Source of the DNA: an uncultured bacterium
GTDB lineage: Bacteria; Patescibacteriota; Minisyncoccia; Minisyncoccales; UBA5738
DNA: 64,000 nt
Direction of reading: 5' to 3'
NCBI GenBank assembly: GCA_903847095.1
Contig: CAINCQ010000024.1
Span: forward strand, 126,618 to 190,617
A program made the position numbers and the translations under genes. The notes beneath the pieces were generated by a model. It searched no databases. It was not told where the DNA came from and was given only the letters and a program-made list of their open reading frames with translations. Positions 2,968 through 57,025 of this stretch are shown here, one piece after another; positions within the stretch are counted from its first letter, which is position 1; each line of letters opens with the position of its first letter.

Positions 2968-3328
2968 TGTGGAGAAGACGGGACTTGAACCCGTATCTGG
3001 AAAACGAACGGCTGAAAAAGGTGATACAAGCTTAGTCCGATTTGATAGGGATCATAAGATAGAAACCGGACAAAATTCTTATGAGCCTAGCCCCTGAATT
3101 TCGGCTGGTTTGCCGGAGCCAAAACTTACAGCCTATCTCCCGTGAATTATACCCGAAAAGCTTAAGAGAGATTCAGCCGACCGGATAGCATTATACTAAC
3201 GGTTAAGCGAAAGCTAATGCGGGTTGTTCAAATAAGTTATTGACACTTATAGGTTTGCCGGTTTTTACAAGATCCAGCTACTTGGCTTGTCTGTTTCAGG
3301 TCGTAATCCATCGAATCCTTTCATCCCC
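2968..3328 (-). ncRNA. ssrA: tmRNA (SsrA)
   Basis: minus-strand 5-prime end GGGGAUGAAAGGAUUCGAUGG matches the tmRNA consensus; 3-prime tRNA-like end CGGGUUCAAGUCCCGUCUUCUCCA with a G3:U acceptor pair; internal tag frame ...NNLFEQPALAFA-UAA; immediately downstream of smpB. Confidence 0.85.
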
Positions 3329-31469: not shown

Positions 31470-31558
31470 TGGCGGAGGGGGCGGGAATCGAACCCACGGA
31501 CAGCTTTAAGACCGTCAGAGGTTAGCAACCTCTTGCAATGCCATTATGCGACCCCTCC
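31470..31558 (-). tRNA. tRNA-Ser (anticodon GCU), long variable arm, CCA encoded
   Basis: reverse complement GGAGGGGTCGCATAATGGCATTGCAAGAGGTTGCTAACCTCTGACGGTCTTAAAGCTGTCCGTGGGTTCGATTCCCGCCCCCTCCGCCA; anticodon loop TTGCTAA; T-loop GGTTCGATTCC. Confidence 0.85.
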
Positions 31559-40595: not shown

Positions 40596-41195
40596 TTATA
40601 CGTCTACGGCTATATCGAATACCAATGGTTTGGCATTCGGCACATTAACAGACAGGGCGGTGGTGAGCGGGATGCCGACCAAGCTCAAGAGAGCCAGATA
40701 GGTTTCCGAGTGTCCCACCAGGACCACGGGTCCGTCAGCCGTTTTGAGTATCTCCAAGATCGCTTGGGCAGTTTTGGAAACATAATCCCGGCATGATTCT
40801 AACCCGGGCCAGCCTTTTTCGTACCAGTACCATTGCCAAGTCATTCCGCTGGCTTCAACGGCTGCCAGAAGTTCTGCGACATTCACGCCGGAAGTATCCA
40901 GGCTCGCTATCGATTCTTTTTTTGTCCACGGGACATTCAGCCCCGCGGAAAGGGTTGTGGCGGTTTCTGCGGTTCGGTTCATCGAACTGGCTACGATAAT
41001 CGTGGGTTTATATCTTCCTACCTTTTCAATTATCGCCATTACCTGGAGCAGGCCATCGCGCGTGAGATGCGGGTCGGAACAGTCCTTGTATATATTGACC
41101 AATCCGACTGATCCATGTCTCACGAAGATAACCTTTACCCTTTTTTTCTTATTTTTCCTCGAATCAGTTTTCAATAGAGCCACCTCCTTAGGCAA
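40596..41195 (-). CDS. Histidine phosphatase superfamily protein (SixA/PGAM-like)
   Basis: VIFVRHG motif, SSMNRTAETA, second catalytic His in VLVGHSE. Confidence 0.7.
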   Translation of the reverse strand: MPKEVALLKTDSRKNKKKRVKVIFVRHGSVGLVNIYKDCSDPHLTRDGLLQVMAIIEKVGRYKPTIIVASSMNRTAETATTLSAGLNVPWTKKESIASLDTSGVNVAELLAAVEASGMTWQWYWYEKGWPGLESCRDYVSKTAQAILEILKTADGPVVLVGHSETYLALLSLVGIPLTTALSVNVPNAKPLVFDIAVDV

Positions 41196-41235
41196 CCTAA
41201 TTAATTATAAAATAAAATTATTAAAAAGTCAAGAT

Positions 41236-42180
41236 ATGGAAAATTATAAATTCATTAGTTTTTTTGAACAAATTTCGGGCAGCGACGCAAAAACAGCCGG
41301 GGGAAAGGCGGCTAATTTGGGCAAGTTGGCCAAAGCGGGCATTCCGGTGCCGGCCGGGTTTGTGATTTTAGCCCCAGCTTTTTTGGAGATTGAAAAAACC
41401 ACGGATATCGGCGAAAAAATAAGAGCGGCTAAGGCAGGGATAGAAATCGGCGATGCCGAGTCGGTAAGAAAGGGGTCGGCAGCGATCAAAAAAATCATTA
41501 TGGCTGCGAAGGCGGATGATTTGGAAGAAGAAGCGCTGGCCGCTTTTGCGGCCTTGGGCGCCAAACGCGTTTCCGTGCGCAGTTCGGCTACCTCGGAAGA
41601 TTCCAAAAGCGCTTCCTGGGCCGGCCAGCTGGAAACGAATTTGAATATCGCTAAATTTGATTTAATCGAAAACATTAAAAAATGCTGGGCATCCTTGTAT
41701 GGTGAAAGAGCGTTGTTGTACGCAGCGGAACAAAAGCTGGAAGAGAAAAAGAATTCCGTGGCTGTAATCGTCCAAACAATGGTTGATTCCGAAGTTTCCG
41801 GCGTTTGTTTTACCGTTCATCCGGTTACGCAAAATAAAAAACAAATGGTTATCGAAGCGGTGTGGGGATTGGGTGAGAGTTTGGTTCAAGGATCGGTAAC
41901 GCCCGACCGTTATGTGGTGGCGAAAATCGGCCGGATAATCGAGGAAGTCGATGCCAACGACCAGGAAAAGATGATTACCCAAACAGTTAAAGGTGCGGAT
42001 TGGGCCAAGGTGCCGGCGGCAAAGCGATCGGCGCAAAAGCTGGCCGGTAAAGAGATCATTGAGTTAGGCGATTTGTGTTTAAAGATCGAACGGCTCTATA
42101 AATCGCCGCAAGACATCGAATGGGCCAAAGAAAAGGGTAAATTCTATATTTTGCAGACGCGCCCGATCACGACTTTATAA
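41236..42180 (+). CDS. Pyruvate phosphate dikinase-like PEP/pyruvate-binding (ATP-grasp, PPDK_N) domain protein
   Basis: N-terminus FFEQISGSDAKTAGGKAANLGKLAKAGIPVPAGFVI is typical of the PEP synthase/PPDK/rifampin phosphotransferase N-domain; ATG at 41236 avoids overlap with the minus-strand phosphatase. Confidence 0.7.
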   Translation: MENYKFISFFEQISGSDAKTAGGKAANLGKLAKAGIPVPAGFVILAPAFLEIEKTTDIGEKIRAAKAGIEIGDAESVRKGSAAIKKIIMAAKADDLEEEALAAFAALGAKRVSVRSSATSEDSKSASWAGQLETNLNIAKFDLIENIKKCWASLYGERALLYAAEQKLEEKKNSVAVIVQTMVDSEVSGVCFTVHPVTQNKKQMVIEAVWGLGESLVQGSVTPDRYVVAKIGRIIEEVDANDQEKMITQTVKGADWAKVPAAKRSAQKLAGKEIIELGDLCLKIERLYKSPQDIEWAKEKGKFYILQTRPITTL

Positions 42181-43236: not shown

Positions 43237-44136
43237 ATGCATTGGATCATTCCGGCGCTTATCGCGCCATTTTTGAACGCGATCGTAAACTTCATCGATA
43301 AATATCTGGTTACCAGGCAAGTTAAAAATTGCCTGGCGATGCAATTGTATACCTCGATTGTGAGTTTTTGTTTTGGGGTGCTCGTTTGGGCAGGGCTTGG
43401 TTTTCCTTCTTTCGGCGGTCTGAGCGTTTTTTATGGGCTGGCCGCGGGCGTGTTGTTTTCGGTCGCGGGAATCGGTTATTATTATGTGCTTTCCCGAAAG
43501 GATGTGAGCGATATGATTTTTCTTTACGCTCTGACACCGGTGTTTGTTTTTCTTTTTGCAAATTTCATTCTTCGGGAGGCGATATCATATAGCCAGTTTC
43601 TCGGTTTTTTACTGATTTTGTCAGCTGCGATATCGGTATCGGCGAGAAAAAAGGCGAATATTCCGCTGCTTTCATTTACCGCTTTTCTAATATTGGGGAT
43701 GGATATATTGTTCGCGCTGGCGATCGTGATGGTGAAGCTGGCATTCAACGCAAGTTCTTTTGCCGTTATGCTGGTTTATGAAGGCTGGGGATTGGGCTTG
43801 GGTGGAATTTTGATTTATTTTTTTTCCGCCAGGATGAGGAGTGCGTTTTGGGAAAATTTTAAAACCACGTCGGTTAAGGCATTTGGCATTATAGGAATAA
43901 GCGAAACTTTAACGGTGTTGTTGAACTGGATCGGTTATTACGCGTTATCGATTGGCCCGGTGGCTCTGGTGAGCGTGGTCGGTGGAGTGCGTCCTTTTTT
44001 TGCCATAATCCTCGGTTATCTGTTGACCCTGTTTATTCCTTCGGCTATCAGCGAGGATATTTCCAAAGAAACGTTATCGCGGAAAATTCTCGCCGCCATA
44101 ATTTTAACTATCGGCTTGTATTTTACTTATACTTGA
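43237..44136 (+). CDS. EamA/DMT superfamily transporter
   Basis: 10 predicted TM helices arranged as two 5-TM repeats. Confidence 0.5.
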   Translation: MHWIIPALIAPFLNAIVNFIDKYLVTRQVKNCLAMQLYTSIVSFCFGVLVWAGLGFPSFGGLSVFYGLAAGVLFSVAGIGYYYVLSRKDVSDMIFLYALTPVFVFLFANFILREAISYSQFLGFLLILSAAISVSARKKANIPLLSFTAFLILGMDILFALAIVMVKLAFNASSFAVMLVYEGWGLGLGGILIYFFSARMRSAFWENFKTTSVKAFGIIGISETLTVLLNWIGYYALSIGPVALVSVVGGVRPFFAIILGYLLTLFIPSAISEDISKETLSRKILAAIILTIGLYFTYT

Positions 44137-44273
44137 TATTTTTGAGGCGAAAGAATGAATGGATTAATTCACGGTAATCCCAAAAAAAAGTATGTTGATT
44201 TCTGATCCCTGAATTCTTGACGTTTTTGGAATAATAGATAAGTATCTAAGAAGAACATTGAGGAGGTAAGAAT

Positions 44274-44792
44274 ATGTGCCAAGAAAAAGGAGCGGAAAAA
44301 CCGATTGAATATAAAATGGAGTGGCAGAAAAAAAGAGATGAGTTTCGGGAAAGATGGAGTTTTGTCAGAAAGATCGACGAATACTCGATGAAGCTGATTT
44401 CCCTGCAATGGCAGGGGGATAACGTTTTTCATACCGGAAAGCGGGTGGATATGACGATTCCCGGTCCGGTGATCGATTTGGCCAAGGGTATTGCCTGCTG
44501 GAACACCCCGGTGAAGATCTTTATCCTTGGGAGCGGAAAATGCCGCGTGACGGTTACTAACGATTTGGATTGGAAGATTCAAAAGATCATTGACGCGTAC
44601 AGCAGCCAGAACGGCCGAAATCCGCCCGAATGGGAAAGGCGCCGGCTCTATATGGGCTATGACGGGATTTGTTTGAAAGGAGGGCCCGACCATATTGCTG
44701 ACATGGAGAAAGCCCAGAAATTTGGATATTTCCTCTGGTATCTTGCCGATGATTTCAAATGGGGATATGCCGGTATTGTAGCGGGGATATGA
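44274..44792 (+). CDS. Hypothetical protein
   Basis: strong SD (GAGGAGG) 7 nt upstream of the ATG; the overlapping minus-strand ORF 44169..44693 is rejected. Confidence 0.45.
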   Translation: MCQEKGAEKPIEYKMEWQKKRDEFRERWSFVRKIDEYSMKLISLQWQGDNVFHTGKRVDMTIPGPVIDLAKGIACWNTPVKIFILGSGKCRVTVTNDLDWKIQKIIDAYSSQNGRNPPEWERRRLYMGYDGICLKGGPDHIADMEKAQKFGYFLWYLADDFKWGYAGIVAGI

Positions 44793-44807
44793 ATCTCCGC
44801 TTTTTAA

Positions 44808-45065
44808 TTGTCAAAGCGTCAAAATATTGACGAATCTAAAAAAACAATTTACAATATAAATAAGGTGATTTGGTTGCAAATAGGGTTGATTTTGGCTGCT
44901 ACGGTGGCTTTCGGACTTGCCGCGCTCCTGTTTGGAGCAGCGACTGCGATCTCATACCGGCAGCAGAGGAAGGGATTAGCCGGGATCATGGCTATTGCCA
45001 CGGCCGTGATGTTGGCAATGGGCTGGTGTATTTTCAGCCCGATAGCCTGGTTGCCCTTGAAATAG
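44808..45065 (+). CDS. Hypothetical small membrane protein
   Basis: 85 aa with two TM helices. Confidence 0.3.
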   Translation: MSKRQNIDESKKTIYNINKVIWLQIGLILAATVAFGLAALLFGAATAISYRQQRKGLAGIMAIATAVMLAMGWCIFSPIAWLPLK

Positions 45066-45138
45066 CGAGCTGGCAAAGCGGATAAACATCTCCGTTTTTA
45101 TTTTATTCATTTTTTGTACTATTATTTAAGAAATAATA

Positions 45139-46395
45139 ATGGCTAACGAAACAAAACAATTTGACGTGGCGGTGGTTGGGGCCGGGCCGGCCGGGATGAT
45201 GGCCGCGGTCGCGGCGGCCGAGCTTGGCGCTCGGGTCATCGTTTTGGAAAAGAACAGCCGGCCGGGGATCAAGCTTATGCTTACCGGTAATGGCCGGTGT
45301 AATTTTACCAATGCCGAACAAGACATTCGCAAGCTGGTTGGCGCCTATGGGGACAATGGATCGTTTCTGTTCCACGCGTTTTCGCGTTTTGGTTCCAAAA
45401 ATATCAGAGCTTTTTTTGAAGGTATGGGGGTTCGCTTAAAGATCGAAGACCGGTTCAGGGTATTTCCGGAAAGCGATAGGGCTAAAGATATTCTGGATGC
45501 TTTGGAAAACCGTTTAAGATGCGCCGCGGTCGCCATTAAATATGAAACCGCGGTAACGGGTTTTTTGCGCGAAGGGCGCTTGCTTAAAGAAGCGGTTTTA
45601 AACGACGGAGCGGTAAAGGCCCGTAATTTTGTTATTGCTTCCGGCGGAAGATCTTATGAATTGACCGGTTCAACCGGGGATGGCTATCGCTGGGCGCGGG
45701 ACCTTGGTCATAAGGTTATCAAGCCCAAGCCAATGCTGGTGCCGGTAAAGATCAAAGAATTTTGGGTTAAAAATTTGTCGGGCGTGAGCCTAAAGAGGGC
45801 GGGGATCAGGATAGTCGAGAATGGCAAGAAGAGTCCGATGGCGATCGGGGAATGTCTGTTTACCCATTTTGGTTTGAGTGGTCCGCTGGTTCTTGATTTA
45901 AGCGGCCGGATCGGGAATGCGCTCAAAGGGGGGCCGGTAAAACTTTTGATCAGTTTCTTCCCTCAAAAAAGCCCGGCAGAGATCGAGCAGGATATCATAG
46001 CCGATCTGAAGAATGGGAAAAACAAGGAATTAAAAAACTGCTTTACGGAATTAATGCCCAAAATTTTAACCTCGGCCATCTTATCGCTGGCCGGAGTTGA
46101 TCAAGAAAAACACGCCAACAGTTTAACCCGGGAGGAACGGCAGAAGATTGTTTCTTTATTATTCCAAACGCCGGTAACGGCTACGGGTTTATTGGGTTTT
46201 GATCTGGCGATCATAACCGGCGGCGGGATCGATCCAAAAGAGATTGATGCGAAAACCATGAGGTCAAAGCTGGTTGATAATCTGTTCTTTGCCGGCGAGA
46301 TCATTAATGTTCATGGTGTTACCGGGGGTTATAATTTGCAGCAATGCTGGAGCACCGGTTATCTGGCCGGAACAGCGGCCGCGAAAAACTTTTAA
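45139..46395 (+). CDS. HI0933/BaiN-like FAD-dependent flavoprotein
   Basis: N-terminal Rossmann DVAVVGAGPAGMMAA...VLEKNSRPGIKLMLTGNGRCNFTN is typical of the HI0933 family. Confidence 0.7.
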   Translation: MANETKQFDVAVVGAGPAGMMAAVAAAELGARVIVLEKNSRPGIKLMLTGNGRCNFTNAEQDIRKLVGAYGDNGSFLFHAFSRFGSKNIRAFFEGMGVRLKIEDRFRVFPESDRAKDILDALENRLRCAAVAIKYETAVTGFLREGRLLKEAVLNDGAVKARNFVIASGGRSYELTGSTGDGYRWARDLGHKVIKPKPMLVPVKIKEFWVKNLSGVSLKRAGIRIVENGKKSPMAIGECLFTHFGLSGPLVLDLSGRIGNALKGGPVKLLISFFPQKSPAEIEQDIIADLKNGKNKELKNCFTELMPKILTSAILSLAGVDQEKHANSLTREERQKIVSLLFQTPVTATGLLGFDLAIITGGGIDPKEIDAKTMRSKLVDNLFFAGEIINVHGVTGGYNLQQCWSTGYLAGTAAAKNF

Positions 46396-46432
46396 GAAAG
46401 CAGGAAAATAATAACCAAGAATAAAACGGCTT

Positions 46433-47062
46433 TTATGAGCCGTTTGGTTTTTCATCGGTTTCTTCCCAGCCGTCCAGTATGCGCTTGGTGCCGATGGCGA
46501 TGTTGTCGCAAACAGGGCACTGGCAGAAATTTCCCGCCAGGATCAGGTCGCGCAACGTGTTTTCGCAAATGCCTTCTCCCAGGTTTGACGCGACCTTGAT
46601 GATGGCTGCCGCCAAATTCTGGAAGGCGAAGAATTCGCAATTTTTTGCGCGCAACCGGATGTTCTTTATCAGGAATTCAGCCTCGTTTTCGTTGACGTAC
46701 GTAATCAGCCCTTCGGCCTTTTTATACATCAGATGGCTCATCCGCTGGCATAGGACGACATGCGCCAGGTCGATAGGAAATTCCGTATCGATCAAGGCTA
46801 GCTTTACCGATTCTTCGAAATGGTAGCCAAGCGCTCCCAAGATCGTCAAGCCGGATTTTTTGTTCTGCATCTGTTCGGCGATCGCAGCCAGGGCGATGAA
46901 GCGGGGAATTTCCGTTGCGTAAGCCGGGCTGCCCAGAAGTTCGGATATGCAGCCTGCCATTTTGAACGGTTCGTCCCTGATCATGAGGCGGCCGAGCTTT
47001 TCGATCGTTGGTTCCCGGTTTACAACCGAGATCGTGCCTTTTCTTTCGGGAATATCTTTCAT
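46433..47062 (-). CDS. Hypothetical protein with a C-terminal Cys4 zinc-ribbon-like motif
   Basis: GGAGG RBS 6 nt upstream of the ATG at 47062; C-terminal C-x7-C-Q-C-P-V-C. Confidence 0.4.
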   Translation of the reverse strand: MKDIPERKGTISVVNREPTIEKLGRLMIRDEPFKMAGCISELLGSPAYATEIPRFIALAAIAEQMQNKKSGLTILGALGYHFEESVKLALIDTEFPIDLAHVVLCQRMSHLMYKKAEGLITYVNENEAEFLIKNIRLRAKNCEFFAFQNLAAAIIKVASNLGEGICENTLRDLILAGNFCQCPVCDNIAIGTKRILDGWEETDEKPNGS

Positions 47063-47211
47063 TTGATTCCTCCGTATACAGTAATTATAGAACAAAATTT
47101 AAAAATGTCAAGGATAATTCAGGCTTTACATTCCCACTGGCCGTATTATCATTATTCCCAGTTTTATTAAAAAGAGGGTTGAAAACGGAAAGGCGGGAGA
47201 AAAGAAGACGT

Positions 47212-47661
47212 TTGCAATTGGAAGTCATCAAATCGCTGGCCGGGTTTTTCGAAAAAAATGTTTGTTGGCTGGCCGGCGGATGGGCAGTTGAGGCCATTAC
47301 CGGCGTCCGGTTTTTTCACGACGACATCGACCTGTATTTTTTGGACGAATTCCGGGGTTTGTTGCCGGCGGAGAACGATTTTCTGGACATCCATATTGTT
47401 TCGAAGAAGCCAGACGGTTCGTATCGGCAAGTTACGATGGGTGAGGTTTTGCGATTCTCGAGCCACGCGTTCGAACTGAAGCCGCGGATTATTGCCGGGC
47501 TGGAGGTGAGAACCGTATCGCCCGAACTGTTGTTCGCTTTTGCCGACGGTTCGCCCGACCCGCGTTTTCAGGAAAAACGGACTCTTCGGTTGCTCCGCGG
47601 CATAAATATGGAAAAGGTCGGAGGAATCATTCAATACCTGCCCGAAAAATCGATAAAATAG
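47212..47661 (+). CDS. Minimal nucleotidyltransferase (Pol-beta superfamily; aminoglycoside 2''-adenylyltransferase-like)
   Basis: GGWAVEAITGVRFFHDDIDLYF is a G[GS]...D-x-D NTase motif; the start codon is uncertain (no in-frame ATG; TTG at 47212 after GGGAG). Confidence 0.4.
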   Translation: MQLEVIKSLAGFFEKNVCWLAGGWAVEAITGVRFFHDDIDLYFLDEFRGLLPAENDFLDIHIVSKKPDGSYRQVTMGEVLRFSSHAFELKPRIIAGLEVRTVSPELLFAFADGSPDPRFQEKRTLRLLRGINMEKVGGIIQYLPEKSIK

Positions 47662-47772
47662 CGGCACCCAAGAAGGTGCTTTTTTGTACAACCGTTTAAA
47701 CAATATCAACGGTGAGATGCTTGATTTTCTGTCTCAATGGATTAAACTTAGGGGAAATTACTTTTTTGCGAT

Positions 47773-48891
47773 ATGGATTACGATAATTTCGGAGCAAATA
47801 TTTCGGCTGATGACGCGGTAATGGCAAAAATGGATAAAACCGGCTTTGGTCTGCCTTTCTACGATCCCGGCCGTCATTATAAGGATGTGGCGACAAAAGA
47901 CTATTTCTTCGCTTTGCTTACTTTAAGGCATTATATCAAGCTTGCCAGCGACCATTATTTCTCATCGATCGTCGGGGCCAAAAACGCGGATCTTTTCATG
48001 CTGACCCCGAGTATTTCTTCGCCGAGCGGTTCTGGTTCCGATTCGGCCGCGATCAAGATAAAATTCGGCGAACTGGATACTTATCTGGTCGATTCTTCAC
48101 AGTTCGGGTTCGAGCCTTTGCTGTTGAACCATTTTACGAAGGTTTATTGCTATCTTCCGTCAATGCGCGGTGAAGATCCCGATGCCCGGCATTTAAACCA
48201 ATTTTTCCATTGCGAGCTGGAAATGAGGGGAACACTGGACGATTTGGTTCCCGTGATCGAAGGCTACGTGAAATATCTTTGCGAAACCGTTCTCGCGATG
48301 GACGCCGTTATTGAACGGATCAGCGGGGATCCAGGCAAGACCCGGTCGGAGCTCAAGAAAGTCGTCCAAGCCGGATTGTTTCCGACAATATCTTTCGATG
48401 ACGCGGTAAAAACTTTGGCGGACAATAAACGATCGGAATGCGTCAATTATACGGACCAGGGCCGGGATATCAACAGCCGCGGCGAGATCGAGCTGATGAA
48501 GATACTTGGAACGGACGGGCCGGTCTGGCTGAAAAATTTCGACCGCGATCGCGTTCCGTTTTACCAAAAGCCGGATCCGGCCGATCCGGAGAAGACGATC
48601 AATGCCGACTTGCTTTTTCCGCCGCTTTTGGCGGAAGCCTTCGGAGGAGAAATCGCGGGAAGCGGCCAGCGGCAGGACGATCCGGCCCAGATGTACGGGT
48701 CTTTGAAAAGACAGGGTGTATCGTCGGAGCCTTATGAATGGTATATCGATCTGCGGAGAATGCCGGGTTATCTTTCCACGTCTGGATTTGGTTTGGGTAT
48801 CGAAAGGTTCCTGGCGTGGGCGCTGGCCAAGGAAAAGATCGGCGATGTGATCCCATATCCGCGTTTAAAAAACATTGAAACCAAGCCTTAA
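47773..48891 (+). CDS. Class II aaRS catalytic-core paralog (AsnRS/AspRS-like; archaeal-type asparagine synthetase A-like) lacking an anticodon-binding domain
   Basis: motif 2-like RGEDPDARHLNQFFHCELEMRG and motif 3-like SGFGLGIERFLAWALAKEKIGDVIPYPR (compare AsnRS GGFGLGxERL...RDVIPFPR); no N-terminal OB fold. Confidence 0.5.
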   Translation: MDYDNFGANISADDAVMAKMDKTGFGLPFYDPGRHYKDVATKDYFFALLTLRHYIKLASDHYFSSIVGAKNADLFMLTPSISSPSGSGSDSAAIKIKFGELDTYLVDSSQFGFEPLLLNHFTKVYCYLPSMRGEDPDARHLNQFFHCELEMRGTLDDLVPVIEGYVKYLCETVLAMDAVIERISGDPGKTRSELKKVVQAGLFPTISFDDAVKTLADNKRSECVNYTDQGRDINSRGEIELMKILGTDGPVWLKNFDRDRVPFYQKPDPADPEKTINADLLFPPLLAEAFGGEIAGSGQRQDDPAQMYGSLKRQGVSSEPYEWYIDLRRMPGYLSTSGFGLGIERFLAWALAKEKIGDVIPYPRLKNIETKP

Positions 48892-48909
48892 ATCAAACGA
48901 CAGACCAAC

Positions 48910-49749
48910 ATGGACAAAAAAGAATTCAAAGATTTTTTCGAACCTTATTCAAAAAACGTCGATAATGCCAACACGCAGGCCTTTTGGAAATTGTCGGACG
49001 CGTTGATCTTGGAAATCATCAAGCAAAATATTCCGGCGGATGATTCCCGCGATAGCGTTATTTTTGATGCCGGCGGCGGAACGGGCCGATGGATTTGCGA
49101 TCTGGCCAAGGTTTATGAAGCCGATTTTATTTTATACGATCTATCCGAAGACATGCTGGCTGTGGCAAAAAACAATATCGCTAAAGCCGGGATTGAGCCG
49201 CGCGTAAATTTAATTCAAGGCGATCTGGCCGATATCAAATCGGTGCCGGATTCATCGGTTGACCACATTATCAGTATTTACAGTCCAATCAGTTTTATAG
49301 AAAAAAAAGAGAGAGCGGCGGCCGAGCTTTTCCGGATCTTAAAGAAAGGCGGTACAATATTGATAATGGGGCATGGATATTGCAACGCCCTGGCTTCAAA
49401 GATCAACAACTATGCGGCCGGGCCCCGGGAGCTGCGGCAAATTGCCGCCGGATCCATGGTTAAATGGGGCGATTCCGTACCCAAGCTCAATATATTTTCG
49501 CAGGAATCGATGGAGGCGCTGCTGGCGGATGCCGGTTTTACGCCGGTTCGCACTTACGGCGTGCCGGTGTTCGTCCAGCCTGGCAACGAGGATTTTGACG
49601 CGGCCAATTCCGCGAAGAGCCGTATTTCGGCAGCGCTGGAAGATCCCGCTTTTTATAACCAGGTATTTCAAACAGAAATGGAATTCAATTGTAAAAAAAC
49701 AATTGCCAACCGCGGAATGAACATATTCTCGGTGGCTAAAAAACAATGA
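48910..49749 (+). CDS. Class I SAM-dependent methyltransferase
   Basis: motif I VIFDAGGGTGRW, motif II-like ILYDLSEDML, post-I acidic residue. Confidence 0.65.
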   Translation: MDKKEFKDFFEPYSKNVDNANTQAFWKLSDALILEIIKQNIPADDSRDSVIFDAGGGTGRWICDLAKVYEADFILYDLSEDMLAVAKNNIAKAGIEPRVNLIQGDLADIKSVPDSSVDHIISIYSPISFIEKKERAAAELFRILKKGGTILIMGHGYCNALASKINNYAAGPRELRQIAAGSMVKWGDSVPKLNIFSQESMEALLADAGFTPVRTYGVPVFVQPGNEDFDAANSAKSRISAALEDPAFYNQVFQTEMEFNCKKTIANRGMNIFSVAKKQ

Positions 49750-50777
49750 TAAGTCCGATAATTCCCGATAAATTAAAAATTGGCGATACGATTGCGCTGG
49801 TGAGTCCATCGGCGGGTTTGGCTCCTTTTGCCATGCATCGTATCGATTCGGCGGTATCTTTTTTCAAAGATCAGGGCTTTAAAGTAAAGATCGCCAAAAA
49901 CGCTTTGCAGAATGCCGGCTATGTTTCGGCTACGGCCAAAGAGAGGGCCAAGGATTTGAATGAAGTTTTTGCCGATCCTAAAGTCAAATGCGTGATGACT
50001 ACGATCGGCGGGAACCATTCCAACCAAATCTTGCCGTTTATCGATTGGATTACGATCAAAAACAATCCTAAAATATTCATTGGCTATTCCGATATCACGG
50101 TGTTGCACAGCGCGATCTTTGCCCAAACCGGCTTGCAGACTTATTATGGACCGTGCGCGATGACCCAATTCGGCGAGAACCCGAAAGTGTTCGATTACAC
50201 GTGGGAAAATTTTAAACGGGTGTTGTTCGCGGGACCGGCCGAAAAAAAGATCGAGGTTAAGCCGTCGGAATTTTTTTGCGAAGATACGTCTTTGGATTGG
50301 TTTAAAAGAGAAGACTTAATCCGTCCGCGAAAGATCGAAAAAAACGGGGGCTGGGCTTGGTGGCGGGAGGGCCGCGCGGAAGGGAGAATCGCGGGCGGTT
50401 GTGTTCCTTCAATCAATCATTTGTTGGGGACTAAATATTGGAACGACCCGAGGGGCTCGGTTTTTTTCATCGATATTCCGGAAGGCGCGTCTTATGATTT
50501 GGGGTTGGCGGTCAGCGAAGCGGATTCTTGTTTGGCCGACTTGGCCAACGCCGGGGTTTTTGACGATATCGCCGGTTTGGTCGTCGGGCGGCCCTACCGG
50601 TATTCGGAAGAGGAATCAAAAAAGCTCCGGGAGATCATCATCGGATACGCGCAAAACAAGGATTATCCGATTCTCGCGAACGTCAATATCGGTCACGTTG
50701 ATCCTATTATTACCTTGCCTTACGGGGCGCCGGCCGTTCTGGATTCGGAAGCCGGCAGATTTAGTTTCGAGCACTAG
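49746..50777 (+). CDS. S66 family LD-carboxypeptidase (LdcA/MccF-like)
   Basis: nucleophile motif GYSDITVLH, C-terminal His region NVNIGHVDPIITLPYG; ATGA overlap with the upstream methyltransferase. Confidence 0.7.
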   Translation: MISPIIPDKLKIGDTIALVSPSAGLAPFAMHRIDSAVSFFKDQGFKVKIAKNALQNAGYVSATAKERAKDLNEVFADPKVKCVMTTIGGNHSNQILPFIDWITIKNNPKIFIGYSDITVLHSAIFAQTGLQTYYGPCAMTQFGENPKVFDYTWENFKRVLFAGPAEKKIEVKPSEFFCEDTSLDWFKREDLIRPRKIEKNGGWAWWREGRAEGRIAGGCVPSINHLLGTKYWNDPRGSVFFIDIPEGASYDLGLAVSEADSCLADLANAGVFDDIAGLVVGRPYRYSEEESKKLREIIIGYAQNKDYPILANVNIGHVDPIITLPYGAPAVLDSEAGRFSFEH

Positions 50778-50814
50778 CCGTTTCCATTAAAAAAACCCCG
50801 GATTTTTTCCGAGG

Positions 50815-51924
50815 TTAAAATAGGCTGGCATAAAGCTGGGTGCCTAAACCGCTTACAAACAATCTTTCTTTTTGGTTACAGAGCAATTTCTTCATCCAGT
50901 CGCTGGCTCCTCCGTCTACGAGGGGATAGGTTGCGCCGCCGGAGTTTTTCGCGGTTATTTTAAAACAGAGGCCGCGATAGTATCCGATGCCGGCGCAACG
51001 GGCGAGGTTGTATTGGAACCGGATGTCCGGATACGCGAGGCGCATGGTTTCGATTTCTTTTTCTTCCAGCAGCTTGAGCCGTTTAAGTTCGTGTCCGATT
51101 TTTGATTTTGAGCTTGTTGGCATCGGCAATTTTTCGGTGATTTCGGGCAGGTCGATGCCGTACTGCTCAAACGGATGGAAGTCCGGATCTTGCGTCCGCC
51201 GCATCAATTCTTTTTTTTCAACCGAGCCTTGCGCCGCCAGTTGTTCTATGATGTTGATATTGGAGACAGCCACCGTGATTTCTTTTGGCGCGTAGCCCAG
51301 TCTTCTCGAATTCTGCAAAAATCGGATCCAGATCTCCAAATGGGCGGCCAGCGATACGGCGGCAAAATTTTCGCGTCCGTAATTCTTACCCGAACTGGCC
51401 AGGCAAAATGATCTGAAGTGAGGTTTGAAACCGGATTTATCGGTGAACAATTGCAGCCGCAAGGAGCGGTGGCTCGTAGCCAAATGTATTTCTTCGATGT
51501 CGTTTTGCTGCCTTCTTTTGCGGGCGCATTCCAACGCCAGCGCGGTGGTCGGGTCGGCGTTCACTTCGACGCTTCGGATGGTTTCCAGAACCACTTTGGG
51601 GCTGATCTTTGTCAGGGCGCAGTTTGAACCGATAGCGCTCACCGGCGATAATTCGATATCTTCGAACCGGTCCGGCAATATCTTATAAATCAAAGAGTCG
51701 ATTTCCAACAAGTCTCTCTGTCCGGTATTGGCCGGCTGGCACAAACGGTTATTCTCGTAATTTTTTATTACGTCCAGCGGGGTAAGTTTGGCGACCTTTT
51801 TTTCCATAATAGGGAGAAGCAAGGTCGTAAGGTCCCGCCAAGATAGTTGTCCCGCTGTTTTTATGACCGGGTAGCCGTTGAACGGCTCCAGTATCCTTTC
51901 CAGGATCTTTTTTTTATTCATCAT
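50815..51924 (-). CDS. Hypothetical protein with weak class II aaRS (HisRS/HisZ-like) motif resemblance
   Basis: AAGGAAGTGA RBS before the MM start; HFRSF...GRENF and GIGYYRGL...GG loosely resemble HisRS motifs 2 and 3; assignment is tentative. Confidence 0.3.
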   Translation of the reverse strand: MMNKKKILERILEPFNGYPVIKTAGQLSWRDLTTLLLPIMEKKVAKLTPLDVIKNYENNRLCQPANTGQRDLLEIDSLIYKILPDRFEDIELSPVSAIGSNCALTKISPKVVLETIRSVEVNADPTTALALECARKRRQQNDIEEIHLATSHRSLRLQLFTDKSGFKPHFRSFCLASSGKNYGRENFAAVSLAAHLEIWIRFLQNSRRLGYAPKEITVAVSNINIIEQLAAQGSVEKKELMRRTQDPDFHPFEQYGIDLPEITEKLPMPTSSKSKIGHELKRLKLLEEKEIETMRLAYPDIRFQYNLARCAGIGYYRGLCFKITAKNSGGATYPLVDGGASDWMKKLLCNQKERLFVSGLGTQLYASLF

Positions 51925-52075
51925 CTTCACTTCCTTTGGCTTTAAATGACAAGGTGCTTTTGTTGGTAACGATAATAGACCAAACATAAACCAAGTCAAG
52001 AAAAAATAATGGCCGTAAGCTTGACGCAATACTATTATTATGATTTAATAATTTGGAATCGAGGAGTGTGTTAAA

Positions 52076-52387
52076 GTGAGTCTTAAAGAAGGAATCGAGA
52101 AAGTTTTGGCCCTGCCTAATGCCGGGCGCGAAAGCGTAAACTTGGATGATCCGGAACACCAAGCGCTTGACGCCGACGGATTTCATTATTTAATGAATGA
52201 TGTGCGCAGCCGGAACGATATCGCCTTGGAAGCGTACGCCGTGGAAAGTATGCATGTGATATTAAGCGCCATACCCGGAATAGAATACAAGACGGCGCGT
52301 GCGTACGGCGAAGGTCTGAAGCGTATCCCGGAACAAGAGGGAGTTGTGAGTTTCTGGGTCAGGAGAAAGAAAGCACCTAAACAATAG
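52076..52387 (+). CDS. Hypothetical protein
   Basis: 103-aa ORF with GGAGTG RBS-like sequence. Confidence 0.35.
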   Translation: MSLKEGIEKVLALPNAGRESVNLDDPEHQALDADGFHYLMNDVRSRNDIALEAYAVESMHVILSAIPGIEYKTARAYGEGLKRIPEQEGVVSFWVRRKKAPKQ

Positions 52388-52396
52388 GAGGCTAAA

Positions 52397-52885
52397 ATGA
52401 AATTATTGCTGGAGCTGAGGGAAAACCGGTATTTTTCCGAAGAGAAGATCAAGGAACTTTACCGTCTTGTCAGAGAAATGGGATTGAAAGAAACGAACTT
52501 CCGGGAGCTTCGCGTGAGGCTGATATATCCGTCTAAAAACGCGGAGGGTAACCCCGGAGTTCCTTCGGAAAAAATCGTTTTCCAGGGAAAGTACCGGGAA
52601 ATTTACAGCGATGATACCTTGGCCAATGTTTGTACCCTTAGCGTGGTATTGCAGATAATCGGTGAAGAAATTTTCGGATCGTTTAACATAATCGATCCCT
52701 TGCATCCGGATAAATTCATCGCCAAAACCGAGAATATGCCCTATGGGGAGCTTTTAAAAATTCTCGCTAAGGCGCAAGACATCGGGGCGTTGCCCTGGGA
52801 GGCGAGATCAAGATGGCACAGGTATGATGGATGGAAATCGCTTTTGGGCAAAGTCCAGCATATTGACGACAGGAATGTTCAATAA
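52397..52885 (+). CDS. Hypothetical protein
   Basis: 162-aa ORF with AGGAGG RBS at 52387-52392. Confidence 0.4.
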   Translation: MKLLLELRENRYFSEEKIKELYRLVREMGLKETNFRELRVRLIYPSKNAEGNPGVPSEKIVFQGKYREIYSDDTLANVCTLSVVLQIIGEEIFGSFNIIDPLHPDKFIAKTENMPYGELLKILAKAQDIGALPWEARSRWHRYDGWKSLLGKVQHIDDRNVQ

Positions 52886-52889
52886 TCAA

Positions 52890-52914
52890 GCGGATCAAAA
52901 AATCCGTTTTTTAT
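52890..52914 (+). terminator. Rho-independent terminator
   Basis: gcggatcaaaaaatccgtttttt. Confidence 0.55.
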
Positions 52915-52976
52915 TTTCGGTCTTTGGTCGGCCGGATTCCCGGGAGGCCGGATCTTCACGGGTTTGCGTCTTAGTG

Positions 52977-53005
52977 CTTGACAAAATAATAGTATACTGT
53001 TATGT
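52977..53005 (+). promoter_or_regulatory. Sigma-70-like promoter (TTGACA-17-TATGTT)
   Basis: cttgacaaaataatagtatactgttatgtt upstream of the ORF at 53054. Confidence 0.4.
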
Positions 53006-53053
53006 TATTATTTGTTTCCGCCCGGTATGGCGGACGAAAAAGGAGTGTCAAAA

Positions 53054-53698
53054 ATGTCAGAGAAAGAGAAGGAAAAGAAAACAACGTTTGGCGGTATAAG
53101 GATAACGACTGAGTCAGAGAAAAAAGAAGACCCATTCGATAAGCTCTTCGATCTGGGTAAAGAGCGACCGGAAGCAGAAGAGGGGGAGGAGAAGGAGGAA
53201 GAAAGTCCTTTCCAGAAACAGCTCACCGGGATCCTGGATCTCCTCGGGAACATCGACGGGATGCCAGCGGAGATGCTCCAGGCTATGATTGAACCGGCCT
53301 ACGGCAGCATATCCGAAAAGGTCAAACCGCTTCTCGAGCTCCTGCCAATTTTGACGGAACTGGTTGGTAAAGACCTGGATCCGCTGATCCTTGCGGCTCT
53401 CAAGCTTTCCAACAATTCGGGGGAAAGCCCAGAAGTCAAAGCTGAACGCAAGATCAACCGGAAGCTTAAAGCGGAGGAAAGGAAGGAGCGATACGACGCC
53501 TATTTCCAGGTCGGATTCACGGAGGACCAGGCGATGACGTTGCTACTCAACGATATCGCCCGCAGCTCCGGCGGCCTGGTCGCGCAGTTTGCCTCAAAGG
53601 CTGCCGCATCGGCAGTAAGCGATGCATCGAATCCAGTGGTCAAAATCGTTAAGAACCAGGCAAAAGAAAAGATTCCAAGAAGCAGGGGTAAAAAATAG
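53054..53698 (+). CDS. Hypothetical acidic (Glu/Lys-rich) protein
   Basis: AAAGGAGTG RBS 7 nt before the ATG at 53054; highly charged N-terminus. Confidence 0.4.
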   Translation: MSEKEKEKKTTFGGIRITTESEKKEDPFDKLFDLGKERPEAEEGEEKEEESPFQKQLTGILDLLGNIDGMPAEMLQAMIEPAYGSISEKVKPLLELLPILTELVGKDLDPLILAALKLSNNSGESPEVKAERKINRKLKAEERKERYDAYFQVGFTEDQAMTLLLNDIARSSGGLVAQFASKAAASAVSDASNPVVKIVKNQAKEKIPRSRGKK

Positions 53699-54092
53699 GT
53701 CCTTAAAAAGGACAACCAGACAGGCAGATTAATGCCTGTTTTTTCGTTACCGGCCGGGGTATTTCCGGCGTTTTTTTGTCCAGATTTGAAAACCGGCGGG
53801 AAACCGGCTTTGGCTTTAAATATAAAATAAGAGCAATAAATCGAAATAAATACTATTAGCAGGCCGGAGAAGAGAGTGGGCCAAGCAGTCACTTTTCGCA
53901 AAAGATTATCCGTAAATATTGTATTTACTTTATTGCAGACCGCGTTCCGGTGCTTTCCAAACGGCTTGTATTGACAGAGTTATATTTTTATGATTAAATA
54001 TAAACAAAAGCCGGCAAATTTCGGGAGTGATTAAAGTGACAGAAAACAAAAAGGATGCAGGAACAGAAAAGACATTGGCAAGAGGAAAGATT

Positions 54093-54852: not shown

Positions 54853-55767
54853 ATGAAAATCAAAGAAATAAGCCCGAATATTTGGAATTTTAAGGTGGTT
54901 GGCGGGCAAGACGCGTGGCAAGAGGTGGCTTATTCGGCGCGCATGAGCGGCGTTCCCGAATCGATTCCCGGCGAGCAAATTTTTACGATGATCTTGGAAA
55001 ACGATTACAGCTCGGCGTTGGAGCACGTGATCATCAAATTCGATCTTAAGATGAGCAAGGGCAACGCTCCCGAGTTGCTTGAGCATCGTATGGCCAGCCA
55101 TAGCGGTTTTTCGACCCGTTATATCGCGGCCAGCAAGGGAATGTTGCAGGGGCAATCCGGCCAAAAAGATCTTCTTTTGGAGTTTAAGCAGGAAGACGAA
55201 CTTCATGAGGTGATTATTCCGTGGCATTTGTTATCGGGCCGGCCCGAATTTGAAAAAGAAAAGGAGCGGCTTTTTGAAGCCATCGAAGAAAGCATTATTT
55301 CTTACGAAAGCATGCTTAACCGGGGAATTCCGCGCGAGTTGGCTCGGTACGCGTTGCCGTTTTGCCAGGCGGTGGGTATTTACCATTTTACGATTAACTT
55401 AAGATCGCTTTTAAACTTTTTATCTTTGAGACTATGCGTGCGCGCTTCGGTGGAAATGAGATGTTTGGCCGCGCAACTTTATTTTGCCCTGGAAAAAGAG
55501 TTGCCTATTTTGAAGGGGATGATCGGATGCCGCGGATTTATGCGCGGCGTTTGTCCCGAAAGCGGCGTTACCGGCGTGCGAGTCGGAAAACCGCTTACTT
55601 ATTATCCTGTTTGTCCTTTTCGCGCGGAGGGCAGTAAAACTTATATTCCCACCCAGAAAGAATTTTTAAAAAATGGAAAGGTTGGCGGTTTTGACCCGGA
55701 GGCCGCCCAAAAAATAAGGGAAGTTATTTATTGGCAATGGACCGAGTGGGGCGGAGTAGCGGGTTAA
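54853..55767 (+). CDS. thyX: Flavin-dependent thymidylate synthase ThyX
   Basis: ThyX motif LEHRMASHSGFSTRYI (RHRxxS...SxRY-like); upstream ALEHVIIKFDLKMS. Confidence 0.6.
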   Translation: MKIKEISPNIWNFKVVGGQDAWQEVAYSARMSGVPESIPGEQIFTMILENDYSSALEHVIIKFDLKMSKGNAPELLEHRMASHSGFSTRYIAASKGMLQGQSGQKDLLLEFKQEDELHEVIIPWHLLSGRPEFEKEKERLFEAIEESIISYESMLNRGIPRELARYALPFCQAVGIYHFTINLRSLLNFLSLRLCVRASVEMRCLAAQLYFALEKELPILKGMIGCRGFMRGVCPESGVTGVRVGKPLTYYPVCPFRAEGSKTYIPTQKEFLKNGKVGGFDPEAAQKIREVIYWQWTEWGGVAG

Positions 55768-55792
55768 TGAAAATCACCACACGGGGAATTTT

Positions 55793-57025
55793 ATGCAAAA
55801 AATAAACGAACTGGTAAAAAAACATAACGAATGGAGAAATAGTTGCGTCAATCTGATCGCGTCGGAGAACGTGATGTCGCCGGCGTGCGAAAAAATGTAC
55901 GTATCCGACTTGATGCACCGTTATGCCGAAGGCACACCGTTCCACCGTTTCTACCGGGGATTGAAATATGTTGACGAAATCGAAAGCTTGGTTCAGGAGG
56001 AATTCAAAAATCATTTTGGCGCCAATTTCGCCGACATCCGGCCGATTTCGGGAACCATTGCCAATTATGCCGCTTTTTCCGGTATTTCGGAGCGCCAAGA
56101 CAAGATCTTGTCGTTGGGCATCGAGAATGGGTCGCACGTATCCCACGAAAAAGCGGGTGCCGCCGGTTTCCTTGGATTGGAGGTTGATACTTTGTGTTAT
56201 GACAACGATCTTTCCATGGATTTGGAAAAAAGCGCGGAAAAAATCCTAGCCGTTAAACCTAGATTCATCGTGATCGGAGGTTCGGTGATCCTTTTCCCCC
56301 AGCCGGTGAAGGAATTGAAGGTTGTGTGCGATAAGGTGGGCGCGAAAATTATTTATGACGCGGCGCATGTGTTCGGCCTGATCGCCGCCGGGGTTTTTCA
56401 AGACCCCTTGAAAGAAGGCGCCGATATTATTACCACCTCCACCCACAAAACGTTTCCCGGTCCGCAGGGCGGATTGATTTTGGGAAATATTGACGAGTTT
56501 ACCGCTAAAACGATCCAGCTCCGGGTTTTTCCGGGCTTCTCGTCGAACCACCATCTGCACCGGATACCGGCGCTTTATTGCGCTTTAAAAGAAATGCAGG
56601 CGTATGGCTTGGATTACGCGGGCCAAATTGTGAAAAACAGCCAGGCGTTGGCGCGGGAACTTTTCGACAACGGATTCAAAGTGTTGGGGGAAAAGAAAGG
56701 TTTTACCCAAACGCACCAGGTTGTCGTGGACTTTGAAAGGCCGGGCGCGGGCCATGAAGCGGCGGCAAAATTGGAGGAGGTAAACATTATTTTGAATAAA
56801 AACATCATCCCGGGGTTAAACCAAAGCCCAAAAATGCCGCGCGGTATCCGGATCGGCGTCCAGGAAATGACGAGGTTCGGTATGAAAGAGGGGGAAATGA
56901 AAGAGATCGCCAGGCTGATCAAAGAAGCGATGCGCGACGAGCGGGGATTGGAAGAAATCAAAAAAGACGTGATCGGTTTGCGTTCGGGTTTTCAAATCGT
57001 CCGATATTGTTTCAATGAAGAGTGA
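55793..57025 (+). CDS. glyA: Serine hydroxymethyltransferase
   Basis: NLIASENVMS, PLP-Lys region TTSTHKTFPGPQGG. Confidence 0.8.
   Translation: MQKINELVKKHNEWRNSCVNLIASENVMSPACEKMYVSDLMHRYAEGTPFHRFYRGLKYVDEIESLVQEEFKNHFGANFADIRPISGTIANYAAFSGISERQDKILSLGIENGSHVSHEKAGAAGFLGLEVDTLCYDNDLSMDLEKSAEKILAVKPRFIVIGGSVILFPQPVKELKVVCDKVGAKIIYDAAHVFGLIAAGVFQDPLKEGADIITTSTHKTFPGPQGGLILGNIDEFTAKTIQLRVFPGFSSNHHLHRIPALYCALKEMQAYGLDYAGQIVKNSQALARELFDNGFKVLGEKKGFTQTHQVVVDFERPGAGHEAAAKLEEVNIILNKNIIPGLNQSPKMPRGIRIGVQEMTRFGMKEGEMKEIARLIKEAMRDERGLEEIKKDVIGLRSGFQIVRYCFNEE

Follow-up and report, generated by a model that had tools for sequence, protein, structure and literature searches.

One review names just a handful of phosphoramidate nucleotide antibiotics (PMC6429109), namely agrocin 84, the phosphmidosines, and the family of microcin C. 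Agrocin 84 is specified by the agn genes of plasmid pAgK84 in Rhizobium rhizogenes K84, where agnA is followed by the genes for an S-adenosylmethionine (SAM) methyltransferase, agnB1, and a resistant leucyl-tRNA synthetase (LeuRS), agnB2. AgnA is a truncated homologue of asparaginyl-tRNA synthetase (AsnRS); that it forms the phosphoramidate bond of agrocin 84 is a proposal made without experiment (PMC4392301, PMC8323819). A further agn product, AgnC1, is reported to be remotely similar to prolyl-tRNA synthetase (ProRS) (PMC8323819). As for other clusters, a 2021 review mentions only one from Ensifer and the actinobacterial ones traced via AgnC1 (PMC8323819). The locus considered here comprises four genes, designated A, M, P, and E, of an uncultured bacterium; its nearest relatives are in metagenome-assembled genomes (MAGs) of Patescibacteria/Paceibacterota, members of the Candidate Phyla Radiation (CPR). 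It lies in a stretch of 64,000 nt, referred to as the window, that corresponds to positions 126,618–190,617 of the forward strand of contig CAINCQ010000024.1 (assembly GCA_903847095.1); coordinates given below are positions in the window.

Because two core enzymes of the locus, A and P, are homologous to agrocin 84 enzymes, and P also to the microcin C immunity enzyme, the locus is read here, with a probability of roughly 60%, as a minimal cassette for making and self-detoxifying an aminoacyl-adenylate mimic of the agrocin 84, processed-microcin C, or phosphmidosine kind. A preliminary description of this DNA had suggested an aminoacyl-nucleotide with matching self-immunity; the homologies support that idea, and comparisons of gene co-occurrence, of the affinities of A and P, and of the fold of E failed to refute it. 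The compact four-gene form, its spread in CPR bacteria, and the interchangeable second synthetase-like module are apparently undescribed, although the parts are recognizable: a literature search found no description of such a cassette in Patescibacteria, of a general triad of AgnA, methyltransferase, and MccF, or of AgnA biochemistry.

The first three genes form a tight co-directional operon (47773–50777), and E converges on it from downstream. These four open reading frames (ORFs), a fifth upstream of A that is considered in the last section, and the overlap of M and P were all recovered as the preliminary description had given them. The features of the locus are:

47773–48891, plus strand: A, AgnA-like truncated AsnRS, class IIb catalytic core, 372 aa
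48910–49749, plus strand: M, class I SAM-dependent methyltransferase of subtype M1, 279 aa, starting 18 bp past A
49746–50777, plus strand: P, MccF/AgnC5-type S66 serine hydrolase, 343 aa, with an ATGA overlap with M
50794–50816, no strand assigned: hairpin between the convergent genes P and E, AACCCCGGATTTTTTCCGAGGTT with flanking A and T runs, with the terminator pattern on the minus strand
50815–51924, minus strand: E, catalytic-core paralogue of a class II aminoacyl-tRNA synthetase (aaRS), similar to histidyl-tRNA synthetase (HisRS) and HisZ, 369 aa

An additional T run on the plus strand suggests that the hairpin between P and E is bidirectional. Gene E is preceded by a promoter-like site (51999–51972) and by the Shine-Dalgarno-like sequence AAGGAAG, which ends 5 nt upstream of the ATG at 51924.

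Proteins A and P and their closest relatives

A matches the Pfam family tRNA-synt_2 (PF00152) with an E-value of 7.8e-31, and its best solved relative is the AsnRS of Pyrococcus horikoshii (1x54; E-value 6e-31). Since the alignment with AsnRS begins only at AsnRS residue ~128–130, opposite residue ~43–46 of A, A is without the OB-fold anticodon-binding domain; its N-terminus is modelled by AlphaFold2 (AF2) as short helices. AsnRS cores are the top fold matches of the AF2 model (predicted local distance difference test score, pLDDT, 81), with 26–27% identity and a query TM-score (TMq) of 0.74. Motif 2 (SMRGEDPDARHLNQFFHCELE) is found at 48160–48222, GGEIAGSGQRQ at 48643–48675, and motif 3 (SGFGLGIERF) at 48781–48810. 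The residues R132, E134, R139, H140, F144, E148, E293, R300, and R345, which are ATP-binding motif 2 and motif 3 residues of class II synthetases, are invariant among 25 homologues, and mean column identity across the homologue alignment is 71%.

AgnA, annotated as 'agrocin 84 synthetase', is 33% identical to A over 337 aa (BLASTP, E-value 7e-49), and the similarity extends into the N-terminal region that is absent from AsnRS; an AgnA-like protein of Xenorhabdus is 36% identical (E-value 5e-60). A hidden Markov model built from 119 non-CPR relatives of AgnA scores A at 266.8 bits, well above the 152.9 bits that A reaches with the asnS model, and compared with 21–76 bits for full-length aspartyl- and lysyl-tRNA synthetases (AspRS, LysRS) from the same loci. 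A signature motif, S.SSP.G.GS[DN]S, which in the window takes the SSPxGxGSDS form (SISSPSGSGSDS, 48010–48045), occurs in 80 of 85 CPR A proteins and 101 of 120 AgnA relatives; all 11 full-length class IIb aaRSs compared are without it. By these comparisons A is a truncated AsnRS of the AgnA family and not an AsnA. At E-values of 1e-5 or below, A has more than 1,400 matching protein clusters in the database, ordinary aaRSs being included further down the list; the 120 matches listed, for the most part patescibacterial, are ~60% identical to A. Viral contigs yielded no relative of A.

Class IIb cores that have lost the anticodon domain and act independently of tRNA also include the archaeal asparagine synthetases A (AS-AR; Pyrococcus 3p8t/1nnh) and EpmA/GenX. 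A shares these properties but matches AS-AR only weakly (E-values in the PDB 6e-7 to 3e-8, over the C-terminal third) and EpmA at an E-value of 0.09, and the gene neighbourhood differs from both.

P contains the Peptidase_S66 (PF02016; E-value 1e-38) and S66C (PF17676; E-value 3e-23) domains. Among solved structures it is closest to Escherichia coli MccF (3tlb; 33% identity, E-value 6e-55), and matches to the E. coli and Bacillus MccF proteins (E-values 6e-55 to 1e-50) run over the full length, whereas those to LdcA-type enzymes (E-values 6e-15 to 1e-9) cover the N-terminal domain only. AgnC5 is 33% identical to P (E-value 2e-64), and a tblastn search of plasmids with P matched agnC5 ('MccF-like protein') of the agrocin 84 plasmid. 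The nucleophile is Ser115 in GYSD (50082–50093) and the histidine is His317 in IGHVDP (50688–50705); both are kept in all 75 family members compared. The acidic residue of the triad is Asp243 (50463–50480), as in 24 of the 75, rather than the Glu of the other 51 and of MccF. Trp186 of MccF stacks on the adenine of the substrate (PMC8323819); its equivalent in P, W185 (50292–50303), is kept in 72 of 75. P was first described as an S66 carboxypeptidase of either the LdcA or the MccF type, and on homology it is a member of the MccF/AgnC5 group and not a murein LdcA.

These affinities bear on a plain housekeeping explanation, in which A would be an archaeal-type asparagine synthetase AsnA, P a murein LD-carboxypeptidase LdcA, and M and E unrelated neighbours. 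NCBI names many AgnA relatives 'asparagine synthetase A', LdcA does belong to the S66 family, and A has sub-threshold matches to AsnA models, PRK06462 models among them. The scores against the NCBIfam AsnA equivalogs, however, are 136.3, 118, 85, and 69 bits where the cut-offs are 389, 322, 368, and 309 bits, so that the AsnA (PF03590) type of the preliminary description falls away while its class II aaRS core without an anticodon domain is retained. The best NCBIfam model for A is asnS (TIGR00457; 152.9 bits, cut-off 342.6), and archaeal AsnA comes only at rank 50 in the fold search with the A model, at 17% identity; when its grouping was checked, A fell with AgnA. For P the corresponding figures are 6e-55 for MccF and ~1e-12 for LdcA. 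Given also that the four genes stay linked through shuffling of their order across phyla, and that only a small minority of genomes carry the cassette, the housekeeping explanation is very improbable.

Conservation of the cassette and its variable partners

Linkage was examined in 94 loci (given L numbers) obtained from context look-ups and from a scan of one genome per species, with ORFs called and clustered within ±7 kb of A. In the 47 well-flanked loci, in which 4 kb or more adjoin A on either side, P is present in 44, thus joining AgnA and AgnC5 homologues in one locus; M is also present in 44, any of three second aaRS-like genes in 38, and A, M, and P co-occur in ~94%. The preliminary description had asked whether its genes co-occur elsewhere, and A, M, and P do so in nearly every related locus, in several orders. 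Among the 88 loci of the gene-class table, the classes are distributed as follows:

P family (S66): 80 of 88 loci
M family (methyltransferase): 79 of 88 loci
E: 29 of 88 loci
AlaRS-like core c4, similar to alanyl-tRNA synthetase (PF01411, E-value 2.4e-6): 23 of 88 loci
LysRS paralogue K: ~8 of 88 loci

With R denoting a radical SAM gene, the gene orders found are A-M-P with E convergent, M-E-P-A, M-c4-P-A, A-M-P-R-K, and A-P-M-R, and flanking genes vary. E converges on A-M-P in L007–9, L012, L013, L015, and others, and is co-directional, as M-E-P-A, in L033, L052, and L058. Persistence of the linkage despite shuffled orders and flanks points to a shared function rather than to inherited synteny. 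The cassette was found in at least 100 of 185,579 species genomes, mostly of Patescibacteria, with the addition of a Calothrix plasmid, and this patchy, cross-phylum distribution argues for an accessory, horizontally moving function. Identity of A is ~55% both within and between architecture types, whereas that of P is 30–55% (~30% between subtypes) and E diverges much faster than A; A therefore probably handles a constant substrate.

The M-AlaRS-like-P-A version is found on plasmid2 of Calothrix parasitica NIES-267 (L037, AP018229.1: 48915–69958) and in L024. C. parasitica is a cultured cyanobacterium and would be a tractable non-CPR host for the cassette. Many carrier MAGs are labelled Gammaproteobacteria, Micavibrio, Bdellovibrionales, or Methanosarcinales (e.g., L020, L029, L032, L043, L046, and L071); some of these labels are suspected to be unreliable, and the labels were not used for host range.

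The sequence likeness of E to HisRS and HisZ is faint, as the preliminary description had said. PF13393 scores 20.4 bits (cut-off 25; E-value 3e-4), hisZ 15 bits (cut-off 272), and hisS 12 bits (cut-off 287), and a profile of E had no match among PDB sequences. The AF2 model (pLDDT 93; predicted TM-score, pTM, 0.91) confidently indicates a class II fold of the HisRS/HisZ kind: the top 50 Foldseek matches in the PDB are all HisZ, HisRS, or the HisRS-like domain of GCN2, with E-values of ~1e-14, probability 1.0, TM-scores of ~0.6, and identities of 10–16%. The 369 aa of E make up the catalytic core only, without the C-terminal anticodon-binding domain of HisRS.

M, which had been recognized as a SAM methyltransferase, matches Methyltransf_25 (E-value 1.5e-18) and has the SAM motif DAGGGTGR at 49066–49089; its best NCBIfam match is the tRNA methyltransferase CmoM, at 55 bits and below the cut-off. 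The M family comprises M1, the window type, with a divergent sub-branch M1b; M2; and a short type found with c4. M2, present in ~20 sister loci, resembles both AgnB1 (up to 206 bits) and MccD (up to 115 bits). In L022, L028, and L089, M2 lies beside a pyridoxal phosphate-dependent decarboxylase similar to the N-terminal domain of MccE (E-value 7.6e-14). MccD and the MccE N-terminal domain are the aminopropylation pair of microcin C, so that a resemblance to both halves of the pair is seen in these sister loci, though not in the window.

Relatives of AgnA give 741 matches at E-values of 1e-10 or below, and numerous ones lie outside rhizobia. The four non-CPR contexts inspected are:

Xenorhabdus bovienii (L098): A, methyltransferase, S66, nucleoside phosphorylase, two glyoxalases, LeuRS (1,090 bits), ProRS-like protein of 383 aa, major facilitator superfamily (MFS) protein
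Myxococcus xanthus (L097): A, GNAT, divergent ProRS-like protein, S66
Streptomyces virginiae (L099): methyltransferase, A, ATP-grasp, Orn/Arg decarboxylase, NUDIX, APH, MFS, then S66
Clostridia MAG (L100): A, methyltransferase, and S66, convergent on a 406-aa HisZ/HisRS-like gene, then a short ProRS

All have S66 and methyltransferase genes together with spare aaRS-type genes, and those of Xenorhabdus and Streptomyces have an MFS gene; by this gene content, non-CPR AgnA-like genes evidently sit in secondary-metabolite clusters. The Streptomyces cluster shares its decarboxylase and APH-type kinase with CPR sister loci. The Clostridia layout is that of the window: its methyltransferase is of the M1 type and a full-length homologue of M (24% over 274 aa, E-value 3e-31), and the HisZ-like protein in the E position (hisZ, 95 bits) has weak in-register similarity to E (E-value 6e-4).

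Recurrent accessory genes in CPR sister loci include a second methyltransferase, an HD phosphohydrolase, and an APH-type kinase. The HD phosphohydrolase (~215 aa; PF01966, E-value 6e-10) regularly precedes M-AlaRS-like-P-A in L031, L032, L044, L046, L050, L054, L060, L066, and L094. The APH-type kinase (~363 aa; PF01636) is seen in cassettes that have no second aaRS-like gene (L034, L040, L045, L051, L064, L067, and L074). A radical SAM core of ~301 aa resembling RlmN/Cfr lies inside the cassette at L001:9026–9931 and also in L003, L005, L010, L034, L053, and L069; it matches RlmN (6fz6) with an E-value of 1e-35, is below all NCBIfam cut-offs, is without the RlmN N-terminal domain, and usually adjoins K. 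K is a divergent LysRS paralogue (231–268 bits, cut-off 468) that retains its anticodon-binding domain (L035:13084–15794 and L043:12940–15743). In L035, a canonical LysRS (518 bits) directly follows K (231 bits), and K is thus an extra copy and not the housekeeping LysRS; the arrangement is reminiscent of resistant/sensitive synthetase pairs and may be compared with the resistant LeuRS AgnB2. In L043, another LysRS-like match lies downstream of K. The radical SAM and LysRS-like genes of the five-gene cassette were looked for in the window and are absent.

Housekeeping genes for AspRS, LeuRS, and LysRS near some cassettes were considered as clues to a target and set aside, since their frequency, ~12 in ~700 flanking genes, is by our estimate that expected by chance for small genomes.

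Another function conceivable for the cassette is the modification of a macromolecule. A would be a tRNA-independent aminoacyl ligase, like EpmA/GenX acting on elongation factor P or GluQRS acting on tRNA, with a protein, a tRNA nucleoside, or a cell-wall precursor as its substrate; methylation would fall to M and the RlmN-like enzyme, and trimming or reversal of the modification to P. Anticodon-less aaRS cores are indeed known as modifiers of proteins and tRNA, A is very strongly conserved, the best named match of M is CmoM, and sister cassettes combine the RlmN/Cfr-like core with a LysRS paralogue that retains an anticodon-binding domain. Nevertheless A belongs specifically to the AgnA family, and P keeps the nucleotide-stacking Trp of MccF. 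In four other phyla the same triad lies in clusters of an antibiotic type that also hold exporters and spare aaRS genes; occurrence is patchy and does not extend over whole lineages, and the genes conserved within ±7 kb of A include no candidate target. Macromolecule modification is accordingly judged improbable. The radical SAM enzyme could act on the adenine of a small nucleotide rather than on RNA.

A candidate product and competing accounts

Under the aminoacyl-adenylate reading, the product would poison a tRNA synthetase as a non-hydrolysable mimic of an aminoacyl-adenylate, with an N-acyl phosphoramidate as its linkage. A, as an AsnRS core that has lost its anticodon domain, would use ATP to build the acyl-N-P-adenosine linkage, the role proposed for AgnA. 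E may supply or select the amino-acid part, and so set the targeted aaRS, with the AlaRS-like core or the LysRS paralogue taking its place in other cassettes; alternatively E may have a regulatory part. M is predicted to tailor the product by methylation, possibly of the phosphate, by analogy to phosphate alkylation by MccD and to phosphmidosine, which carries an O-methyl phosphoramidate (one methyl group). P is predicted to cleave the acyl-N bond of an aminoacyl-phosphoramidate nucleotide, either as a processing step or, as favoured here, in self-protection that would spare the producer. An Rfam scan of 44000–54000 (E-value 1 or below) found no T-box or riboswitch that could name the amino acid.

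The locus has more in common with agn than the homologies of A and P. A has the AgnA signature and, like AgnA, lacks an anticodon domain; the gene directly after A codes for a methyltransferase, just as agnA is followed by agnB1; E, with its class II aaRS fold, may be a counterpart of the remotely ProRS-like AgnC1; and the spare full-length LysRS-like K of sister cassettes parallels the LeuRS AgnB2. It differs in having four genes where agn has 17, and in being carried by a patescibacterium rather than a rhizobium. The window has no homologues of agnC2–C4, C6, C7, D, E, F, or G, and hence no genes for a side chain, an opine-like carrier, or an exporter.

In microcin C (mcc), the predicted class of product is likewise a non-hydrolysable aminoacyl-adenylate, and P retains the Ser, the His, and the adenine-stacking Trp of the immunity enzyme MccF. 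The systems differ in that the linkage here would come from an aaRS-derived enzyme and not an E1-like one, that no MFS protein MccC and no MccE acetyltransferase was found, and that M of the window is not MccD-like. Phosphmidosine, from Streptomyces, is a free aminoacyl-nucleotide of small size that contains an N-acyl phosphoramidate, the type of product that an aaRS-like ligase and one methyltransferase could make. It belongs to the phosphoramidate class and resembles Pro-AMP (PMC6429109, PMC11229370); the AgnA-like genes of Myxococcus, Xenorhabdus, and Clostridia have ProRS-like genes as companions, whereas A of the window does not. No phosphmidosine gene cluster was found in the literature.

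Several points weigh against the aminoacyl-adenylate reading. Patescibacteria are generally not known for a rich secondary metabolism. The window cassette holds neither a full-length resistant aaRS comparable to AgnB2 nor a dedicated exporter comparable to AgnG, and the EamA gene that lies 3.6 kb upstream has no conserved counterpart in L007. M is not an orthologue of AgnB1, which it matches in the SAM core only (E-value 2e-4); M1 and M2 have a SAM core of ~120 residues alone in common. E has no similarity to AgnC1 or to the AlaRS-like c4 by BLASTP or hhalign. It also has DGGASDW where HisRS has GGRYD, a possible loss of the motif 3 Arg, and E may be non-catalytic, like HisZ. No ThiF/E1-type homologue of MccB was found in 88 neighbourhoods, in which MccA precursor peptides were not systematically searched. 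The divergence rates of A, P, and E are compatible with more than one division of labour, in that P may see a variable part of the product, which fits immunity, or a constant intermediate, which fits biosynthesis. Finally, the agrocin 84 pathway itself is called unknown, and AgnA has never been characterised biochemically (PMC8323819).

The two options for P lead to an alternative with the same kind of product, in which P may be a biosynthetic rather than an immunity enzyme. A would make isoasparaginyl-N-AMP from Asn and ATP, as MccB does, P would release adenosine 5'-phosphoramidate, and E, the AlaRS-like core, or the LysRS-like protein would acylate the phosphoramidate with its own activated amino acid. 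Such a scheme explains why A stays at ~55% identity across architectures and why A and P form an invariant pair while the second aaRS-like gene varies; it also fits the AsnRS-type residues retained in A and the natural ability of aaRS-like enzymes to transfer aminoacyl-AMP to an adenosine-bearing acceptor. In pAgK84, agnC5 belongs to the agnC 'side-chain' operon, apart from the immunity genes agnB2 and agnG (PMC8323819). On the other hand, P evolves fast, which is unexpected for an enzyme with a constant substrate, and the characterised MccF enzymes are all immunity hydrolases (PMC8323819). The scheme is wholly inferential and would call on catalysis by E, in which the motif 3 Arg is taken to be lost; we consider it unlikely, though the least unlikely of the alternatives.

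With no exporter and no resistant aaRS in the window, the four genes might instead serve only for defence or salvage, taking up, modifying, and hydrolysing the aminoacyl-nucleotide toxins or nutrients of other organisms without making a toxin. CPR bacteria are generally known as auxotrophic scavengers, and stand-alone MccF homologues do give resistance to microcin C (PMC8323819). Resistance, however, needs neither an ATP-using AgnA-type ligase nor a second aaRS-like protein, and it is A that defines the cassette and is its best-conserved gene. PADLOC returned a generic methyltransferase match for M and a weak radical SAM match (E-value 0.0028) for the RlmN-like protein of L001, and no known defence family. 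Defence or salvage alone is thus regarded as quite improbable, less probable than macromolecule modification.

Should the aminoacyl-adenylate reading hold, the triad of AgnA, methyltransferase, and MccF, with its at least 100 species genomes, would be a search handle for further natural aminoacyl-adenylate mimics, which are scarce and valued as leads. The four-gene version would be small enough to test what AgnA-type enzymes do, a question that has been open since the pAgK84 sequence, reportedly that of Kim et al. (2006). A translation poison would be unexpected in CPR bacteria and would bear on the interactions of these episymbionts with hosts or competitors. A broader proposal, put forward tentatively and with much less confidence, is that the cassettes constitute a modular family for tRNA-synthetase inhibitors across Patescibacteria and scattered Cyanobacteria, Clostridia, Myxococcota, Actinomycetota, and Gammaproteobacteria. 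An invariant AgnA-type ligase together with an MccF-type hydrolase would form the chassis, and a swapped class II aaRS-like protein (HisZ-, AlaRS-, LysRS-, or ProRS-like) would set the amino acid mimicked and the synthetase targeted. If this were true, ultra-small symbionts would be equipped with a molecule for chemical attack or for control of their hosts, and nature would hold a large library of compounds to which agrocin 84 belongs.

The upstream insertion and other features of the window

The region upstream of A contains a 1.3-kb insertion (46410–47719); in L007 and L015, its closest relatives, 149 bp stand in its place. It includes the fifth ORF of the preliminary description, and its features are:

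46433–47095, minus strand: ORF of 220 aa with no family match
47212–47661, plus strand: nucleotidyltransferase-like ORF of 149 aa (GGWAV...HDDIDL), matching PF10706 at 25.3 bits (cut-off 21) over residues 18–46 only
47663–47680, plus strand: terminator-like hairpin GGCACCCAAGAAGGTGCT, then TTTTTTG, ending the nucleotidyltransferase gene upstream of A and marking the 5' boundary of the cassette

The nucleotidyltransferase is present as first described, with weak similarity to PF10706, ANT(2''), and Lnu, but its proposed membership of the cluster is rejected: it is part of a window-specific insertion, has its own terminator-like hairpin, and, like the 220-aa ORF, is found beside A in none of the other 94 loci. 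The insertion could be a small mobile module of two genes, for example of a toxin-antitoxin-like type.

Other genes identify the window as part of a cellular genome. These are a transfer-messenger RNA (tmRNA) gene with the tag peptide VNNLFEQPALAFA (2969–3328, minus strand), a tRNA-Ser(GCT) gene (31470–31558, minus strand), a thymidylate-cycle pair in which ThyX is directly followed by serine hydroxymethyltransferase (54853–57025), and a 936-aa UvrD-type helicase fused to a PD-(D/E)XK nuclease, similar to AddA/AddB (58881–61691). In addition, an ORF for a phosphoenolpyruvate (PEP)-utilizers mobile domain (39067–40287) is separate from one for the N-terminal ATP-binding domain of pyruvate phosphate dikinase (40957–42180); together the two look like a split or rearranged enzyme of the PEP synthase/pyruvate phosphate dikinase kind.

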